From Candidatus Moraniibacteriota bacterium (GTDB lineage: Bacteria; Patescibacteriota; Minisyncoccia; Moranbacterales; GWC2-37-73): 64,000 bases of DNA. The position numbers and the translations under genes were made by a program. Of the stretch, positions 1 through 7,095 are shown piece by piece (position 1 is the stretch's first letter; each line of letters starts with the position of its first letter). The stretch covers positions 1,367-65,366 of the forward strand of contig DNVR01000019.1 of NCBI GenBank assembly GCA_003507445.1, written 5' to 3'. The notes beneath the pieces are model-generated. The model had not been told where the DNA came from. It saw nothing but the letters and a program-made list of their open reading frames with translations, and ran no database searches.

Positions 1-45
1 GATAACCTTGTCTACGACCGCGCTGGGAAAGTTGCTGGATACGCG

Positions 46-1623
46 ATGCCGTTTCTTAAGGGCTTTGATGTCCTTCTGAGTTACGGTGACCGAGCTTTTG
101 GGCAAGCGGTGCCCTATGATCAAAAAATGGGAATCTGCTTGGGGTTGCATGAGTCTTTACGACAAACGCACCCCCTCGGAGTTATTTTCGGAGACTTCAA
201 TGATCTCAACATTCTCGTAAGGGGATCCGAAGCATGGATCATTGATGTCGACAGTGCTCAGTTTGGATCGTATTTGTGCAGGGTGTTTACCGAGAAATTT
301 GTAGACCCACTGCTTTGCGATTCCACTGGCAAGCGTCCGATGCTCAATCGTCCATTCAACTCCGACTCAGACTGGTATGCCTTCGACGTCATGTTGATGG
401 CAACCTTGCTTTACGTTGGTCCCTACGGCGGAATTTTCAAGCCTGGGGACAAGAGCAAGCTTGTCCCTCATGACCAGCGACCACTCAAACGAATTACTGT
501 TTTTCATCCGGATGTAAAATATCCCAAACCTGCAGTGCATTGGAGGGTTCTGCCTGACGATCTATTGCAGCATTTTCACCAGCGATTTGAAAACGATGTT
601 AGAGGGCAAACCCCTCTTGCATTGCTGGAAAAAATGCGGTGGACAACGTGTTCCAACTGTGGAATTGAGCATGCCAGAGCAATGTGCCCGGAATGTTTCG
701 TTGCTCCACCAGCCGCCATCAAGGAGGTAACCGTCGTGCGTGGCATTGTCATTGCAAGCACAATATTCAAAACAAAAGGAGTCATCCTCCATGCTTCCTA
801 CCAGGAAGGTAACTTGCGGTGGCTCTACCATGAAAATGGAGAATATCGTCGCGAGGGTGGTGCAGTTGTTACGCAAGGAAAACTCGACCCGCAGGTGAGA
901 TATCGAATTAAGGACAAAAAAACCCTGATTGGCAAGGAAAACATCGTTGTTATCCTTAGCCCGGGAGAACAAATGGAACGTGTTGTTGTTGACATGTACG
1001 GCCAACTGCCTATCTTTGACAGCAACGACAAGTTTCACTACTGGTCACAAAACGGCCAGCTACGCCGCAACGATCCAATGGGTGAGGAATATATCGGAGA
1101 CGTGCTGCAAAACCAGACCTTGTTCTGGGTCGGGCCAACTTTTGGCTTTGGCTTTTACAGGGCGGGTGAAATTAGCATGGCATTCGTCTTCGACGCTCAA
1201 AGGAAACGCTCCCTTAATGACCAGGTAAATATTCAACCCATACGCGGACAACTAGTCGACGCCACATGCATTTTCAGTCCAAAGTATGCGTGGTTTTTTA
1301 CCACTAGTTCAGAGAGTGGCAAGCTGATGAATCGCTGCACATTGATTGAAGCAAGTGGCAAGGTTTTATCTACCGCTGAGACTGAAAAAGGCAGCGATCA
1401 CTGGTTAGGAAATATCAGAGGTTCTTGTGCTATTAACAAGTTCCTGCTGGTTCCAACTGATGAAGGTATCGTCAGAGTCGAAGAAGATAATTCGCAACTG
1501 ACTGAAGTAAAAAAATTCCCAGACACTGAGTCGTTTGTTGATTCAAGTTCATTCCTTTACCCTGGTGCTGATGGCTTGTACGTCATAAGGCGTCAGGAAA
1601 TAATCCGACTGAAATTAAGTTAG
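46..1623 (+). CDS. Protein-kinase-like-fold protein with a central CxxC...CxxC zinc ribbon. The reading frame is open to the window start, so the gene is probably 5'-truncated.
   Basis: The motifs FGDFNDLNILV / IIDVDSAQFG / DWYAFDVMLMATLL resemble kinase catalytic-loop, DFG and subdomain IX regions. The zinc ribbon reads CSNCGIEHARAMCPEC. There is no in-frame stop between nt 1 and 46. GC is about 55%. Confidence 0.4.
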   Translation: MPFLKGFDVLLSYGDRAFGQAVPYDQKMGICLGLHESLRQTHPLGVIFGDFNDLNILVRGSEAWIIDVDSAQFGSYLCRVFTEKFVDPLLCDSTGKRPMLNRPFNSDSDWYAFDVMLMATLLYVGPYGGIFKPGDKSKLVPHDQRPLKRITVFHPDVKYPKPAVHWRVLPDDLLQHFHQRFENDVRGQTPLALLEKMRWTTCSNCGIEHARAMCPECFVAPPAAIKEVTVVRGIVIASTIFKTKGVILHASYQEGNLRWLYHENGEYRREGGAVVTQGKLDPQVRYRIKDKKTLIGKENIVVILSPGEQMERVVVDMYGQLPIFDSNDKFHYWSQNGQLRRNDPMGEEYIGDVLQNQTLFWVGPTFGFGFYRAGEISMAFVFDAQRKRSLNDQVNIQPIRGQLVDATCIFSPKYAWFFTTSSESGKLMNRCTLIEASGKVLSTAETEKGSDHWLGNIRGSCAINKFLLVPTDEGIVRVEEDNSQLTEVKKFPDTESFVDSSSFLYPGADGLYVIRRQEIIRLKLS

Positions 1624-1731
1624 GAAAAGCAAACGACAAGGAGGTGGTATCTACAAATTAGTTTTGATGTTTTGTGGAGTATTTAATGTTTAGAAATTCA
1701 AACTCAAGCAGCACAAAAAAAGGAGAATACC

Positions 1732-2793
1732 ATGAGCCAGAGAAATCCCAGTAAGTATGAAACGATCATCCCTCCTCATTTCAATCCGGACAAAGTCGGC
1801 GAGGTTTGGAGGGTTGATTACAACGGCCTTGCCCCCGTCGCCCAGCAGTGGGCCGCGGCGCAGGACATCAAAGCCGCCGTCACCGATCGCATGCGGATCT
1901 GTCTGATGCCTATCGACGTCCAGAATACCTTCTGCATCCCCGGCTTCGAACTGTATGTCGGTGGGCAGAGCGGTACCGGAGCAATCGATGACAACAGGCG
2001 CCTGGCGGAATTCACTTACCGCTACCTCAAAATCCTGACGGCGATCACGCCCACACTCGACACCCACACCGCCATGCAGATCTTCCACCCCTTCTTCTGG
2101 ATCAATGAAAAGGGCGAACACCCGATTGGCGGAGCAACACTCATCTCCCTCGAGGACGTTCAAAAAGGCGTCTGGCGGGTAAATCCGGCAGTTGTCTTCA
2201 GCGTTACGGGCAACAAAGATATGTACCCGGCGCTCCAGGCACATGCACTTCACTACACGAAACGCCTGACCGAGGACGGCAAGTACGCTCTCATGATCTG
2301 GCCTTATCACGCGATGCTGGGAGGAATCGGGCATGCCCTGGTCTCCTCGTGCGAAGAAGCTTTCTTCTTCCACAACATTGCCCGCCGTAACCAGACTGGC
2401 TTCGAGATTAAAGGTGGCAACCCACTGACCGAAAACTACAGCGTGCTTCGTCCCGAAGTGCTCGACGGTCCGTCCGGCGCTCCCATCGCTTCGAAGAACT
2501 CCGTGTTCTTCAAGAAGCTCCTAGATTTCGACGCAATCATTATTGGCGGCCAGGCCAAGTCACATTGTGTGGCTTGGACAATCGACGACCTGTTGAATGA
2601 AATCAAGGCCAAGGATCCCAGACTGGCTCAGAAGGTGTATCTTCTCGAAGACTGCACCAGCCCGGTCGTGCTTCCTGGCATCATCGATTTCACCGACATG
2701 GCGAACACCGCCTTCAATCGTTTCCGGGATGAAGGGATGCACGTCGTCCGCTCCACCGATCCGATCGAGGAATGGCCGGGGATGAACCTCTAG
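1732..2793 (+). CDS. Isochorismatase-family cysteine hydrolase, atypically long at 353 aa.
   Basis: Has the Asp motif LMPIDVQNTFC and a catalytic-Cys context IIGGQAKSHCVAWTIDD typical of the isochorismatase/nicotinamidase fold. An RBS, AAGGAG, sits upstream of the ATG. Confidence 0.55.
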   Translation: MSQRNPSKYETIIPPHFNPDKVGEVWRVDYNGLAPVAQQWAAAQDIKAAVTDRMRICLMPIDVQNTFCIPGFELYVGGQSGTGAIDDNRRLAEFTYRYLKILTAITPTLDTHTAMQIFHPFFWINEKGEHPIGGATLISLEDVQKGVWRVNPAVVFSVTGNKDMYPALQAHALHYTKRLTEDGKYALMIWPYHAMLGGIGHALVSSCEEAFFFHNIARRNQTGFEIKGGNPLTENYSVLRPEVLDGPSGAPIASKNSVFFKKLLDFDAIIIGGQAKSHCVAWTIDDLLNEIKAKDPRLAQKVYLLEDCTSPVVLPGIIDFTDMANTAFNRFRDEGMHVVRSTDPIEEWPGMNL

Positions 2794-2835
2794 GTTAATC
2801 CAAACAAAAAACCACAACAGACAAGGAGAGAAGAC

Positions 2836-3711
2836 ATGAGCCAGACAGCACTTAACGCATTGTTCCAGAACGCAGCAGCAGACGGAGGACTTTCTCCGGC
2901 CGCCATGCAGGCACTCAATGTGAACGATATCGGAGCTCAAATCCAGGCAGGTCTCGGCGTTTCCGTCGACGACGTCCTGGCATCGGAAGTGGTCATCGTG
3001 ACCATGATGCCCGATGATTCCGGATCCATTCGTTTCGCCGGCAACACGCAGTTCGTGCGCGACGGCCACAACGCCGTCATTGATGCACTGAAAGATTCGA
3101 AACAGAAAAACGGCATCCTTATGCACACGCGTTATCTCAACGGTAACGTTCTGTTCCCCTACGTGAACATCGACCAGGCCGTGCGGATGGATTCCAGTAA
3201 CTACAACCCGAACCTCGGAACCCCGCTCTTCGACCAGACTCTCGTTTTGCTCGGCACCGTGCTGGCAAAAACGCAGGAGTTTGCGGACAACGGCATGCAT
3301 TGCCGGAGCGTTACCTGCCTGGTTACTGACGGCGACGACGAGCATTCGACTCGTGCCGATGCAAGGATGGTTCGCACCGTCGTCAGCGACATGCTGCAGA
3401 CGGAAAACCACATAATAGCCGGCCTCGGCATCGACGATGCCCCGGAAGAGTGCAGAAGCTGCGGTTGCAAAACGCTGCGCGAAACCGAGCTGACGGTCAA
3501 TACCTGTCCCAAGTGCGGAGCGGGTTTCCGTCGCACCAATTTCGAGAAAGTTTTTCTGGAGATGGGCCTGCTCAAAGAGTGGATCCTGACCCCGAAGAAC
3601 ACCCCGTCCGACATACGCAAAGCCTTCCAGATGTTCTCTCAGAGCGCAGTCCGCGCATCCCAGGGAGCGGCAAGCTTTTCGCAGACGGCCGTCGGCGGAT
3701 TCGGAAATTGA
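2836..3711 (+). CDS. VWA (von Willebrand factor A) domain protein with a MIDAS motif and a C-terminal zinc ribbon; possibly TerY-like.
   Basis: MIDAS motif DDSGS (VVIVTMMPDDSGSIRF). VWA core ...VTCLVTDGDDEHS. C-terminal CRSCGC...CPKCG. RBS AAGGAGAG upstream. Confidence 0.6.
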   Translation: MSQTALNALFQNAAADGGLSPAAMQALNVNDIGAQIQAGLGVSVDDVLASEVVIVTMMPDDSGSIRFAGNTQFVRDGHNAVIDALKDSKQKNGILMHTRYLNGNVLFPYVNIDQAVRMDSSNYNPNLGTPLFDQTLVLLGTVLAKTQEFADNGMHCRSVTCLVTDGDDEHSTRADARMVRTVVSDMLQTENHIIAGLGIDDAPEECRSCGCKTLRETELTVNTCPKCGAGFRRTNFEKVFLEMGLLKEWILTPKNTPSDIRKAFQMFSQSAVRASQGAASFSQTAVGGFGN

Positions 3712-3772
3712 TCCGAAAAAATGAAATGTATTTTATGAAGTGAAATGATATTGTGTCGCAACGCAAAATCCA

Positions 3773-3803
3773 AGGAGATAGGCAACCCTATCTCCTTTTT
3801 TTA
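3773..3803 (+). terminator. Rho-independent terminator after the VWA gene.
   Basis: Hairpin GGAGATAGG-caac-CCTATCTCC followed by a T7 run. Confidence 0.7.
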
Positions 3804-3925
3804 TTATTCATTTTTTCATGGAAATGATTGACAACGAATCCCGTGTATGATAGTTTTTAATATCAATTTTATTACATCGTATCAAAAATTGATGTTGTTA
3901 TTTCAACGACAAAAGGAGGGAGCCT

Positions 3926-4408
3926 ATGATATTCGACTTGTATGACGAGGGAGATGTGCGAATTGTTCGCGATGCATTCAAGGGAAAAATGGTTGGACTG
4001 ACATCAGGAAGCTTCGACATGTTTCATGTTGCACATGAGCAATATCTTCAATGCTGTCGCAGACATTGCGGGCATGAAGGCATTTTGATTGTAGGCGTGG
4101 ACTCGGATCACCTTATCCGGCAAAGAAAAGGCAAGAAGCGCCCCATAATTCCTGAGTCAGATCGTCTTCAGTCGGTTGCCGGTCGCAAGGGTGTGGCAGC
4201 AGCATTTATTCTCGGGACTGTCGATGACTTTGGTCGTGCGGCAGAAATCCTGGGAATAAAATTCATTTTCAAGAACCAGGAGTATGAAAAGATTGCCGTT
4301 CTTGGCGCTGAACTTCCCGGAGTTGAATTGGTCATTGTGCCAGACTTTCAACGAACGGAATCAACAACAGCACTGATTGAAAAGGTTTTAAAGACACACA
4401 CGAAGTAA
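3926..4408 (+). CDS. Cytidylyltransferase-like nucleotidyltransferase domain protein.
   Basis: GLTSGSFDMFHVAHEQYL matches the (H/T)xGH-type motif of the cytidylyltransferase family, as in glycerol-3-P cytidylyltransferase and RfaE domain II. RBS AAAAGGAGGGAG upstream. Confidence 0.55.
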   Translation: MIFDLYDEGDVRIVRDAFKGKMVGLTSGSFDMFHVAHEQYLQCCRRHCGHEGILIVGVDSDHLIRQRKGKKRPIIPESDRLQSVAGRKGVAAAFILGTVDDFGRAAEILGIKFIFKNQEYEKIAVLGAELPGVELVIVPDFQRTESTTALIEKVLKTHTK

Positions 4409-4603: not shown

Positions 4604-4981
4604 ATGTCAGAATTCAATTTTGAGCTATTTACCGGTCAAGGAAGCAAATTTAATGTTGCTGTAAGTATATCGAAACCGGGGATATTATCGTTTACTTCCG
4701 GAATGTACAAAAAATATGAACTTTATAACTACCGTGGGGCACAACTATTGTTTGATAAAGATAAAAAAGTAATAGCAATTAAGTTACACGAGGAACAATC
4801 TAAGGATATGTTCAGTTTGAGACACCGCAAAGATAATAAGGGTGGTTTTATAGCATCCAAATCATTCATATTTGCCTACGATATAGATAAAAATTTTGGA
4901 AAAAGATACCTACCAGAAGAAATTGAACATCCTGAATTGGGAAAGATGCTTATAGTTGATTTGAATAAGCTATTGAATTAA
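4604..4981 (+). CDS. Hypothetical protein, 125 aa.
   Basis: ORF with its own promoter; no recognisable motifs. Confidence 0.4.
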   Translation: MSEFNFELFTGQGSKFNVAVSISKPGILSFTSGMYKKYELYNYRGAQLLFDKDKKVIAIKLHEEQSKDMFSLRHRKDNKGGFIASKSFIFAYDIDKNFGKRYLPEEIEHPELGKMLIVDLNKLLN

Positions 4982-5282: not shown

Positions 5283-6398
5283 ATGGATGTTGAAATTGAT
5301 TTTCTTCCGGTTGGTGAAAATTCACAGAGTGGTGATGCAATAATTTTGAGATACGGTAATCTCAATGGCTCAAGAAATGAATATAGTGTTGTTGTTATTG
5401 ATGCTGGTTTTAGGGAAACAGGTGAACAAGTAGTTCGCTACTTGGCAGATAATTATCAGACTGATCATGTTGACTTGATTGTATCAACTCATCCTGATAA
5501 TGATCATTCGGCTGGCATACTAGTTCTGTTGGAAAAAATAAGCGTAGGAAAAATTTGGATGCATAAACCGTGGAATCATACTGCAAATATATCTGAGTTA
5601 TTCAAACACCATGCGGTTTCTGATGCTGGTGTCGAAAGAACTATCAAGAAATCCTTGCAAACAGTCAAGACAATCGAACAACTTGCCGAAAAAATGGGCG
5701 TTGCAATTGTGGAACCATTTACAGGGCTTAGGGATGAGCAAGGAGGACTCTTGGTCTTGGGTCCAGATGAAGAATTCTATAAAAATGAGTTACTTCCAAA
5801 TTTTCGCTGTACGCCAGAACCAGTAGATAATTCTCTTGCAAAAATAATCAGCGACGAACTTAGAAAATTTACTGATTCTATAAAAGAATTTGTAGATGAA
5901 AAATGGGAAATTGAAACACTTGACCATGGCGGTACGACAAGTGCTGAAAATAATTCAAGTACGATATTGCATTTGAGTGTTGGCGAAGACCATTTTTTAT
6001 TTACGGGTGATGCTGGGCAGCCAGCGCTGGAGAGGGTTATCGTATTGCTTGATTCGTATAATTATGATTATTCGAAAATAAAGTTAAAGCAAGTCCCTCA
6101 TCACGGCAGTCACAGAAATGTCAATCCTCTCATCTTGGACAAATTAATTGGTCCTAAATTGCCCAAAGAGGAATCAGAAAAAGTTGTCAAATATGTAATT
6201 GTTTCAGTTTCAAAAGAGGAAAACGAAAAACATCCGTCAAAAATAGTTACGAATGCCTACAAGAGAAGAGGTGGACCTGTGTATACTACACGTGAGGGAT
6301 TTAAATATTATGGCAGTAATAATGCACCAAGAAGAAATGCATATGGTGCCGTTGCACCATTGCCATTCTTTGATAAGGTGGAAAAACATAACGATTAA
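5283..6398 (+). CDS. MBL-fold metallo-hydrolase, ComEC/Rec2-type beta-lactamase-like domain, standalone.
   Basis: HxHxDH motif STHPDNDHSAG; KQVPHHGSHRNVNP matches the ComEC-type MBL signature. Confidence 0.7.
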   Translation: MDVEIDFLPVGENSQSGDAIILRYGNLNGSRNEYSVVVIDAGFRETGEQVVRYLADNYQTDHVDLIVSTHPDNDHSAGILVLLEKISVGKIWMHKPWNHTANISELFKHHAVSDAGVERTIKKSLQTVKTIEQLAEKMGVAIVEPFTGLRDEQGGLLVLGPDEEFYKNELLPNFRCTPEPVDNSLAKIISDELRKFTDSIKEFVDEKWEIETLDHGGTTSAENNSSTILHLSVGEDHFLFTGDAGQPALERVIVLLDSYNYDYSKIKLKQVPHHGSHRNVNPLILDKLIGPKLPKEESEKVVKYVIVSVSKEENEKHPSKIVTNAYKRRGGPVYTTREGFKYYGSNNAPRRNAYGAVAPLPFFDKVEKHND

Positions 6399-6402
6399 AT
6401 TT

Positions 6403-7095
6403 ATGCTAAACAAATACAGTACTTACGCAAGATTTTTTCCTGCCGTGCTTTCCCTTATTCCAATATCATTGCTTTCACATTTTTATCTTTATGAAAAAAT
6501 TCCAAAGCTAATTGATTCAATCATTCTCACTAAAATAGCTGGTGATTTTTCTGTCCTTCTTATTTTTGTTTATTTTGTCATGCAGACATCGAGATATGTG
6601 AGCAAGAAATATTTTCAAGGTAATTATTTCAAGAACGAATCACATTTTCCGACCACGAATTATCTTTTGTGTTCTGACGCTACTTACTCAGAAGATTACA
6701 AACAGAAAATCAAAAATAAAGTTGCCACGGATTTCAGCATGACTTTCCTGGACGAGTTTTCTGAAAAAATGGATGAGGAGTCCGCACGAAAAAAAATTGT
6801 TGAAGCAGTTAATATGATAAGAAGTAAGGTGAAAAATGGGCGTTTGTTGTTGCAGCACAATATAGAATATGGATTCGTAAGAAATTTGCTTGGCGGACTT
6901 GCAATCTCGATACCCATTTCCGTGTTCAATGTGGTGTTGTTCATGTTCTTGGAAAATATTATCGCACTTGTTCTTTCATGCGTGTTGTTGTTGATTTTCT
7001 TAACTCTGTTCTGGTTCAGTGAGGATATCCTGATTTATTTTGCGCATAATTACGCAAAAGTGCTGTTTAACGAATTCCTTTCGGACGAAATGTAA
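6403..7095 (+). CDS. Integral membrane protein, translationally coupled to the MBL-fold gene.
   Basis: ATG lies 4 nt after the MBL stop. Several hydrophobic helices at the N- and C-termini. The upstream part of ORF 6253 overlaps the MBL gene out of frame. Confidence 0.45.
   Translation: MLNKYSTYARFFPAVLSLIPISLLSHFYLYEKIPKLIDSIILTKIAGDFSVLLIFVYFVMQTSRYVSKKYFQGNYFKNESHFPTTNYLLCSDATYSEDYKQKIKNKVATDFSMTFLDEFSEKMDEESARKKIVEAVNMIRSKVKNGRLLLQHNIEYGFVRNLLGGLAISIPISVFNVVLFMFLENIIALVLSCVLLLIFLTLFWFSEDILIYFAHNYAKVLFNEFLSDEM

Follow-up and report, generated by a model that had tools for sequence, protein, structure and literature searches.

Gene content of the locus

We analysed a stretch of 64,000 nucleotides from a Candidatus Moraniibacteriota bacterium (GenBank: GCA_003507445.1, contig DNVR01000019.1, positions 1,367 to 65,366 of the forward strand), called the window in the following. 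Its start carries a large part of a gene cassette with the order PP2C phosphatase, predicted kinase, predicted nicotinamidase and von Willebrand factor A (vWA) protein, to which a small nucleotidyltransferase gene is appended (Table 1). A first-pass annotation, made from the letters of the window, had reported three co-directional genes at this place and they are present as described: the first open reading frame (ORF1, the kinase) is open at the window start and is followed by ORF2 (the nicotinamidase-like hydrolase) and ORF3 (the vWA protein). The annotation had also expected the module to continue upstream, which proved right, and had proposed to inspect that flank for a PP2C or FHA partner or an integrase. 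Contig L001 agrees with the window over 13,711 bases with 0 mismatches (window position 1 is L001 position 1485), and the full kinase gene and a PP2C gene were recovered from public contigs, with a fragment of an IS481-like transposase gene behind the PP2C gene.

Table 1. Cassette genes, their motifs and neighbouring features. Positions refer to the window unless contig L001 is named.
Feature	Position	Strand	Evidence or remark
Predicted YegI/TerY-P-type Ser/Thr kinase (ORF1), C-terminal 540 of 626 aa	1..1623	+	family alignment, Pkinase matches, YegI hhalign
Full kinase gene, 626 aa	L001 1227-3107		
Kinase catalytic D	193-195		C-lobe
Kinase N	208-210		C-lobe
Kinase DxD	244-252		C-lobe
Kinase Cys4 Zn ribbon	~649-696		
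Long-form nicotinamidase-like cysteine hydrolase (ORF2), 353 aa	1732..2793	+	AF2 model, Foldseek, hhalign, invariant residues
ORF2 D62	1915-1917		candidate triad
ORF2 K227	2410-2412		candidate triad
ORF2 C279	2566-2568		candidate triad
vWA-domain protein (ORF3), 291 aa, N-terminal helical extension	2836..3711	+	alignment, AF2 model, Foldseek
ORF3 D60-x-S62-x-S64	3013-3027		MIDAS
ORF3 Cys4 Zn-ribbon insert	~3439-3534		lineage-specific
PP2C phosphatase, 290 aa	L001 338-1210		Pfam PP2C_2 2.9e-16; directly before kinase, outside window
IS481-like transposase gene, 3' end	L001 2-136		~1.35-1.48 kb upstream of window position 1, ~200 bp before PP2C
Terminator-like hairpin, 11-bp stem and 4-nt loop, then T-run	3772..3806	+	3' of vWA gene; hairpin proper 3772-3797
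HIGH-superfamily nucleotidyltransferase, 160 aa, strong Shine-Dalgarno	3926..4408	+	Pfam CTP_transf_like 2.7e-7
125-aa ORF	4604-4981		no family match
Metallo-beta-lactamase (MBL)-fold protein	5283-6398		PADLOC PDC-M48B 3.9e-86
Predicted membrane ORF	6253-7095		overlaps and follows MBL-fold gene

The kinase and the PP2C phosphatase

The part of the kinase inside the window holds the C-lobe, the Cys4 Zn ribbon and then a C-terminal domain of about 300 residues. In an alignment of 35 homologues the G-loop, the Lys, D151, N156, D168/D170 and the four ribbon cysteines C303, C306, C315 and C318 (full-length numbering) are invariant. Direct scans with Pfam and NCBIfam gave weak kinase-type matches (TCAD9, RIO1, LanL, Bud32 and Kdo kinase), and the Pfam Pkinase model is matched by 13 of the 35 family members, with 3.2e-7 as the best value. 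A single-sequence search of the PDB sequences gave weak matches, and those of the family profile were individually weak too, nearly all of them protein kinases, together with the Nop10 ribbon. The profile aligned to E. coli YegI with hhalign at 97.9% probability (E 6e-13), spanning both the kinase domain and the ribbon. From its sequence, ORF1 is therefore predicted to be a YegI-type Ser/Thr kinase with a Cys4 ribbon and intact catalytic residues, and the earlier description as a kinase-like protein with a Zn ribbon holds.

The PP2C family keeps its metal-binding Asp motifs in the alignment. The first-pass annotation had proposed that a cysteine hydrolase takes the place of the PP2C phosphatase, which is not the case, as the PP2C gene lies directly upstream of the kinase and the hydrolase gene comes as an insertion that makes four genes of the three.

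The nicotinamidase-like hydrolase and the vWA protein

Sequence and profile searches with ORF2 and ORF3 came up empty, so that fold prediction was needed for both. For ORF2, single-sequence and profile hidden Markov model (HMM) searches of the PDB sequences found nothing. Its AlphaFold (AF2) model has a pLDDT score (predicted local distance difference test) of 91.6, and the top 16 Foldseek matches in the PDB are all nicotinamidases or pyrazinamidases (best match 2wta, 1.8e-10); their target TM-scores span 0.49-0.77, the majority being within 0.66-0.77. The candidate triad of D62, K227 and C279 is invariant in the 116 sequences of the family; K227 and C279 align with HKGENPLVDSYS and GLATDYCV of E. 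coli PncA, while D62 is placed via the IDVQNTF motif alone. The hhalign alignment with PncA brings the WPxH, catalytic Lys and catalytic Cys motifs together, and H193 in the WPYH motif of ORF2 falls on WPDH of PncA. H193 is a candidate metal ligand along with D110, H112 and H119. ORF2 is about 150 residues longer than the classical PncA, and the long form is typical of the family at 345-355 residues. Judged by its model, ORF2 is predicted to be a long-form nicotinamidase with the PncA fold and an intact triad, in agreement with its earlier assignment to the isochorismatase-family cysteine hydrolases. Its substrate would be nicotinamide, given the PncB genes beside it in relatives and the nicotinamidase-specific metal and triad residues.

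In some nicotinamidase homologues of about 583 residues, an additional conserved domain of about 235 residues (GLCGRIIRGKK...GDGYTY...) is present at the N-terminus; these are P0003, P0026, P0036, P0038 and P0051, as well as L010 1909-3666 and L096 9858-11636. This domain was considered as a separate cassette gene and rejected: neither Pfam nor NCBIfam recognises it, and the fetched loci contain no copy of it standing by itself. Remote homologues of the nicotinamidase (27-31% identity) are found on Vibrio and Variovorax megaplasmids or chromids of 0.8-1.3 Mb, where the match in Vibrio parahaemolyticus lies under features annotated as 'hypothetical protein' and 'RNA ligase family protein'.

For ORF3, the Pfam, NCBIfam and PADLOC scans gave nothing useful and the single-sequence and profile HMM searches of the PDB sequences had no match. 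In the PDB, the AF2 model (pLDDT 90.9) matches PTMP1, ITIH1, the MDN1-MIDAS domain, CMG2 and integrin I domains; its matches in BFVD, down to 2.9e-12, are viral VWFA proteins. The metal ion-dependent adhesion site (MIDAS) residues D60, S62, S64, T129 and D165 are all invariant in the family. Model and alignment point to a vWA protein with an intact MIDAS motif, as had been noted before. The C-terminal tail is conserved and rich in Ser and Gln, ending in GGFG. The Zn ribbon reported earlier for ORF3 is present as a Cys4 motif, but it is no feature of the family: it is a lineage-specific insert of about 30 residues found in a minority of homologues, most of which have 260-265 residues and no such ribbon. 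The motifs named in the first-pass annotation for the three proteins are otherwise all there and invariant across homologues. Taken together, the kinase, PP2C, vWA and nicotinamidase sequences are complete and apparently active.

Distribution and conservation of the cassette

The families of the cassette comprise at least 8000 clusters for the nicotinamidase, 2339 for the vWA protein and 1796 for the kinase. A nicotinamidase scan with one genome per species found at least 595 relatives, and the neighbourhoods were taken from the best 80 of them. These 80 are 61-72% identical, most of them 62-69%, and their degree of identity does not mirror phylogeny. Their hosts are Cyanobacteria, Actinomycetota, Gemmatimonadota, Nitrospirae, Bacteroidota, Spirochaetes, lineages of the Candidate Phyla Radiation (CPR), Methylomirabilota and one Woesearchaeota archaeon. 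All four genes are found in the same order in about 17 of these best 80 of at least 595 genomes. Overall, the cassette recurs at 50-70% identity in Cyanobacteria, in CPR bacteria and DPANN archaea, in many further phyla and in huge phages.

The gene combinations are nested. The nicotinamidase is found alone or beside PncB, as a pair with the vWA gene, or in the full set of four genes; the solo gene, in conserved synteny, makes up most loci of Nostocales and Microcoleus. The kinase was never encountered without the other cassette genes among the loci fetched. When the kinase was used for retrieval from IMG/VR, 15 loci on contigs of 42-545 kb were obtained, of which 14 have all four genes, some only 27% identical, and the fifteenth is a decayed remnant. 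Divergent sets of nicotinamidase, vWA and kinase genes are also present in 'uncultured phage' genomes of 462-595 kb in GenBank, and a faecal phage fragment has this set plus PP2C.

NAD-related genes and palindromes resembling NrtR boxes in the neighbourhood

In the closest relative of the island (vWA 81%, kinase 83% and nicotinamidase 88% identical), the nucleotidyltransferase is followed by a NadD-like adenylyltransferase (NCBIfam: TIGR00482, 2.7e-21), PncB, a gene without family match and a kinase for nicotinamide adenine dinucleotide (NAD). The gene between PncB and NAD kinase encodes about 310 residues and is conserved (L091 8160-9119, L092 8168-9073); it may carry out a salvage step not recognised so far, such as one that replaces NadE. 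The copy in the window looks like a shortened version of this NAD operon.

In loci of Bacteroidota and Gemmatimonadales, PncB (NCBIfam: PRK08662, 8.6e-157) is the immediate neighbour of the nicotinamidase. Across the loci, this adjacency is seen in L022, L042, L091 and L101, among others. It also adjoins the cassette in five of the IMG/VR loci (L101, L103, L105, L109 and L110), and in the Aminicenantes contig L008 the cassette is followed by NAD kinase, PncB and phosphoribosyl pyrophosphate synthetase. The regulator NrtR, with a Nudix domain and the NrtR winged helix (1.9e-28), is encoded divergently upstream of PP2C in 10 loci and is also found upstream in L094. In the Pseudanabaena-type and Kovacikia loci, ADP-ribosylglycohydrolases (2e-37) are positioned between PP2C and the kinase. 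On the chromosome of Kovacikia minuta (L123 1-1990), two ADP-ribosylglycohydrolase genes flank a small gene with an OGFr_N domain directly before the cassette kinase, and genes of Uma2-family endonucleases are inserted around the nicotinamidase.

The fetched loci contain 19 copies of the palindrome AGTGT-N7-ACACT, compared to 1.75 expected from shuffles, and it is positioned directly upstream of the PP2C, the nicotinamidase or the nadD-like gene. The published NrtR motif is a 21-bp palindrome with the core GT-N7-AC, with which our palindrome is consistent, and ADP-ribose reportedly releases NrtR from DNA (PMC2330246).

Composition, boundaries and origin of the GC-rich block

The first 3,720 nucleotides of the window had been described as a foreign block of about 55% GC. 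The foreign composition is real, but it is not uniform and does not stop at 3,720. The GC content is 47-50% in the kinase part of the window, 56.0% in ORF2 and 57.0% in ORF3, with 71% and 70% GC at third codon positions (GC3) in the latter two, and 46% in the nucleotidyltransferase gene. The spacers between the island genes have about 31% GC, the other 59.5 kb of the window have a mean of 36%, and host genes show a GC3 of 28-33%.

The island is a mosaic in itself, with the nicotinamidase and vWA genes about 10 GC points above the PP2C and kinase genes (56-57% versus 46-47%). The relatives on L094 and L091 have the same GC step between the gene pairs, and the spacers are AT-rich. The two gene pairs may have had separate histories, or codon constraints may have shaped this mosaic.

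A terminator was proposed earlier as the edge of the block. The hairpin exists, directly followed by TTTTTATTAT, but the island goes on to the nucleotidyltransferase gene. We considered this gene as native to the host and rejected the idea, as the closest relatives (L091-L093 and L096) have a homologue of it after their vWA gene; it belongs to the island as an accessory, fifth gene. Its NCBIfam matches are RfaE domain II (2e-17, under the curated cutoff) and cyt_tran_rel (over the cutoff). On the other side, the public contigs show that the foreign block extends about 1.15 kb further upstream of the window.

The same region, with the junction between GC-rich and AT-rich DNA and the same flanking genes, is found in five assemblies from different samples and pipelines (ENA, JGI, Logan), and the ORF3 protein is 100% identical to a Candidatus Moranbacteria protein. 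All five public contigs end within the IS481-like element. The sole database matches of this upstream fragment are IS481-family transposases, a weak match with 44 residues available, and its GC content is a host-like 32%. A search for a second copy of this insertion sequence (IS) in the 64-kb window found none. The break of five contigs inside the element explains their shared end and favours a repeat over a mis-join.

The GC and GC3 contrast with the host genes, the IS481-like fragment upstream and the 62-69% identity across unrelated phyla and archaea, which does not track phylogeny, argue for horizontal transfer. We consider the block to be horizontally acquired, with the 3' three-quarters of the operon inside the window; our confidence in this is given below jointly with the functional reading.

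Downstream of the nucleotidyltransferase, the 125-residue ORF has a host-like 32% GC, and its position is kept in all five contigs of the organism and is not shared by the related islands. The MBL-fold gene, about 1.5 kb from the island, is a candidate defence gene; besides the candidate defence family PDC-M48B, the protein matches LmuA, Avs1a and DRT-MBL more weakly.

A proposed phosphorylation switch on nicotinamide clearance

The best explanation for the cassette is, in our view, a TerY-P-type triad that captured a nicotinamidase, so that a phospho-switch would gate nicotinamide clearance and NAD+ salvage. We assign a probability of roughly 55% to this reading together with the horizontal acquisition of the block. 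It builds on what the analysis shows, namely which genes are present and occur together, how they fold, that their catalytic residues are intact, the NAD-gene neighbourhood, the palindromes resembling NrtR boxes and the foreign composition. The link to TerY-P made in the first-pass annotation stands, as PP2C, a YegI-type kinase with ribbon and a vWA protein agree with the domain definition of the triad.

From these observations we infer which substrate is used, which proteins contact each other, what is phosphorylated and what role the cassette has in physiology. The nesting of the enzyme within the enzyme and vWA pair, and of the pair within the set of four, together with the phospho-switch reading of TerY-P (PMC11090510), suggests that the vWA protein controls the nicotinamidase. 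The vWA protein would bind the nicotinamidase by its MIDAS face or by its tail and hold it in one activity state. Kinase and PP2C would reversibly phosphorylate the vWA protein, for which the conserved Ser-rich tail is a candidate site, or the nicotinamidase itself, and the phosphorylation state would turn nicotinamide clearance on or off. In most hosts, NrtR would additionally repress transcription until ADP-ribose, which NAD+ cleavage also yields, relieves it. The cassette would thereby set when nicotinamide from NAD+ cleavage is turned into nicotinate and, via PncB and NadD, back into NAD+.

The conversion of nicotinamide to nicotinic acid is the first enzyme step of the Preiss-Handler route of NAD+ salvage. 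Cleavage of NAD+ yields two products, nicotinamide and ADP-ribose. The module therefore appears placed to respond to NAD+ cleavage under stress or infection, and its role is probably in NAD-centred conflict, be it host defence or phage counter-defence, with plain homeostasis as a further possibility.

Several points weigh against this explanation. At the copy in the window, an NrtR gene, an NrtR box, PncB, NadD and NAD kinase were sought in the window and none was found, so the salvage context comes from the relatives. Many cyanobacteria keep the nicotinamidase alone, which makes the enzyme independent of the switch, and there is no gene fusion of the nicotinamidase to the vWA protein or the kinase. 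ORF2 matches no Pfam or NCBIfam family at E<1, Isochorismatase (Pfam: PF00857) included, and its residues D110, H112 and H119, although invariant in the 116 sequences, were matched to the DxH...H motif of PncA by eye. The kinase fold is also found in small-molecule kinases, so that a protein substrate is unproven. Finally, by sequence the vWA protein is not demonstrably TerY-like: hhalign against YegL gave 26% probability (E 7e-4), and the PADLOC TerY model was not matched by ORF3 and is matched by YegL itself with 0.032.

A broader claim, which we hold tentatively as a possibility rather than an expectation, is that of an NAD+-conflict module, not recognised before, common to cells, including CPR and DPANN, and huge phages, in which a TerY-P-type switch responds to NAD+ cleavage and toggles a dedicated nicotinamidase. 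If true, the module would set the intracellular nicotinamide and thereby NADase immunity and NAD+ reconstitution, and the long-enigmatic TerY-P triad would for the first time have a defined enzymatic output. Such triads are widespread, and to our knowledge no output or mechanism is known for them. A triad locked to one enzyme with a simple assay makes the switch directly testable. A gated salvage would explain why the cassette occurs both in minimal-genome cells and in huge phages, and its spread in near-identical form over Cyanobacteria, ultra-small symbionts, archaea and huge phages speaks for selection being strong and transfer frequent. The cassette would add a regulated step from nicotinamide to nicotinate to NAD+-centred immunity and counter-immunity. 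For annotation, it names two large families so far called 'hypothetical' or generically 'isochorismatase'.

Other explanations of the cassette

The strongest of the other explanations, which we still regard as unlikely, is an anti-phage defence system of the TerY-P class, where the triad would sense infection and the nicotinamidase would be the output that destroys nicotinamide. Phage NAD+ reconstitution of the NAMPT or NARP type would thereby be starved, or the inhibition of host NADase effectors by nicotinamide would be relieved. The domain trio is that of TerY-P as defined in PMC11090510, which also refers to Gao 2020 for TerY-P-like modules acting as stand-alone defence. The island adjoins a candidate defence gene, the MBL-fold protein, and the cassette is mobile, with an adjacent IS element and a patchy distribution. 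Control by an ADP-ribose-responsive NrtR would suit induction by NAD+ cleavage. However, the conservation of 60-70% across phyla exceeds what is usual for a defence system, several cyanobacterial loci have the four genes, or the nicotinamidase and vWA pair, among housekeeping genes, and the presence of the cassette in huge phages suits counter-defence at least equally. Moreover, no PADLOC TerY-P model was matched at E<1 by any of the four cassette proteins, PP2C included, a result that is uninformative here as these models also miss E. coli YegI, PphC and YegL.

Improbable, and more so than the defence reading, is a phage-derived counter-defence that reconstitutes NAD+ via nicotinate after host NADase immunity, with the copy in the window as the remnant of a mobile element or prophage. 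The divergent sets in the 'uncultured phage' genomes and the faecal fragment, some with PP2C, speak for it, as do the 15 putative viral contigs of IMG/VR with PncB adjacent in five, and phage NAD+ reconstitution is an established strategy according to a preprint (bioRxiv 10.1101/2024.02.11.579819). Most copies, however, are in cellular genomes, some of them in conserved chromosomal synteny, no genes for phage structural proteins were noticed next to the copy in the window, and the need for a kinase, a phosphatase and a vWA protein is left unexplained.

We give little credence to two unrelated neighbours, namely a housekeeping nicotinamidase next to an ordinary triad of kinase, phosphatase and vWA protein with another target, or, as a variant, a hydrolase acting on another substrate such as a peptide or the vWA tail. 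The solo nicotinamidases in most Nostocales and Microcoleus loci, the lack of fusions to triad genes and the failure of Pfam to recognise ORF2 would fit such a chance arrangement. Against it, the kinase was not found without the nicotinamidase in the fetched loci and the order of kinase, nicotinamidase and vWA gene is held across phyla down to 27% identity, and the PncB adjacency and the nicotinamidase-specific metal and triad residues point to nicotinamide.

The assembly chimera or contaminant contig end considered in the first-pass annotation, suggested by the abrupt GC change and by every public short-read contig stopping about 230-340 bp upstream of PP2C, is barely credible, as five assemblies from different samples and pipelines, L001 among them, share an identical junction and identical CPR-type genes downstream, the upstream break coincides with the IS481-like repeat and the spacers within the island are host-like in AT content.

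Comparison with known systems

For TerY-P we used the summary of Anantharaman, Iyer and Aravind 2012 given in PMC11090510. There, TerY-P consists of a vWA protein, PP2C and a Ser/Thr kinase that has a Zn ribbon fused to its C-terminus, interpreted as a phosphorylation switch around the vWA protein. Like TerY-P and the E. coli proteins YegI, PphC and YegL, the cassette encodes a vWA protein, PP2C and a kinase with a C-terminal Zn ribbon in neighbouring genes. In contrast to TerY-P, it has a nicotinamidase between the kinase and the vWA gene, which accompanies the kinase in 14 of the 15 kinase-retrieved loci, so that it is not a system of these three genes only. The contexts differ too, being NAD salvage, NrtR and ADP-ribosylglycohydrolase for the cassette and Ter, restriction or CoCoNuT genes for TerY-P, and the vWA protein of the cassette is not detectably TerY- or YegL-like by sequence. 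With the TerY-P-like anti-phage system of Gao et al. 2020, as far as PMC11090510 reports it, the cassette shares the logic of vWA protein, phosphatase and kinase. The Gao kinase has an OB fold in place of the Zn ribbon that is present in the cassette kinase, and the Gao system has no nicotinamidase.

The NrtR-controlled pncA-pncB operons (Rodionov et al. 2008, PMC2330246) resemble the relatives of the cassette, where the nicotinamidase is found beside nicotinate phosphoribosyltransferase, NrtR and a GT-N7-AC palindrome. Unlike in these operons, the enzyme of the cassette has 345-355 residues, is missed by PF00857 and is embedded in a module of kinase, phosphatase and vWA protein which is absent from the NrtR paper. 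The ARG-centric systems regulated by Nudix transcription factors have a predicted role against viral ADP-ribosylation (Iyer et al. 2022, PMC9503650, section 3.8). They likewise combine a Nudix regulator of the NrtR type in one neighbourhood with an ADP-ribosylglycohydrolase, a phosphatase and a vWA 'chaperone'. In the cassette, by contrast, the glycohydrolase is optional and absent from the window and the core is PP2C, kinase, nicotinamidase and vWA protein, while PMC9503650 has no nicotinamidase or PP2C.

NARP1, NARP2 and the NAD genes of jumbo phages (bioRxiv 10.1101/2024.02.11.579819; PMC7824862) are similar to the cassette in placing NAD+ salvage on mobile elements or large phages amid NAD-depleting immunity. 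The cassette would differ from NARP1 and NARP2 in deamidating nicotinamide first and in adding a signalling triad, as the NARP pathways described there use nicotinamide directly (NAMPT, Namat). The jumbo-phage survey (PMC7824862) does not mention the cassette, and literature on nicotinamidases or isochorismatases in connection with TerY-P, vWA, anti-phage systems or NrtR left it undescribed, with most subscription journals outside the coverage. The triad itself is known. What appears new from the sequences, relative to the descriptions available, is a TerY-P triad with an embedded nicotinamidase as a fourth gene, set in an NAD context.

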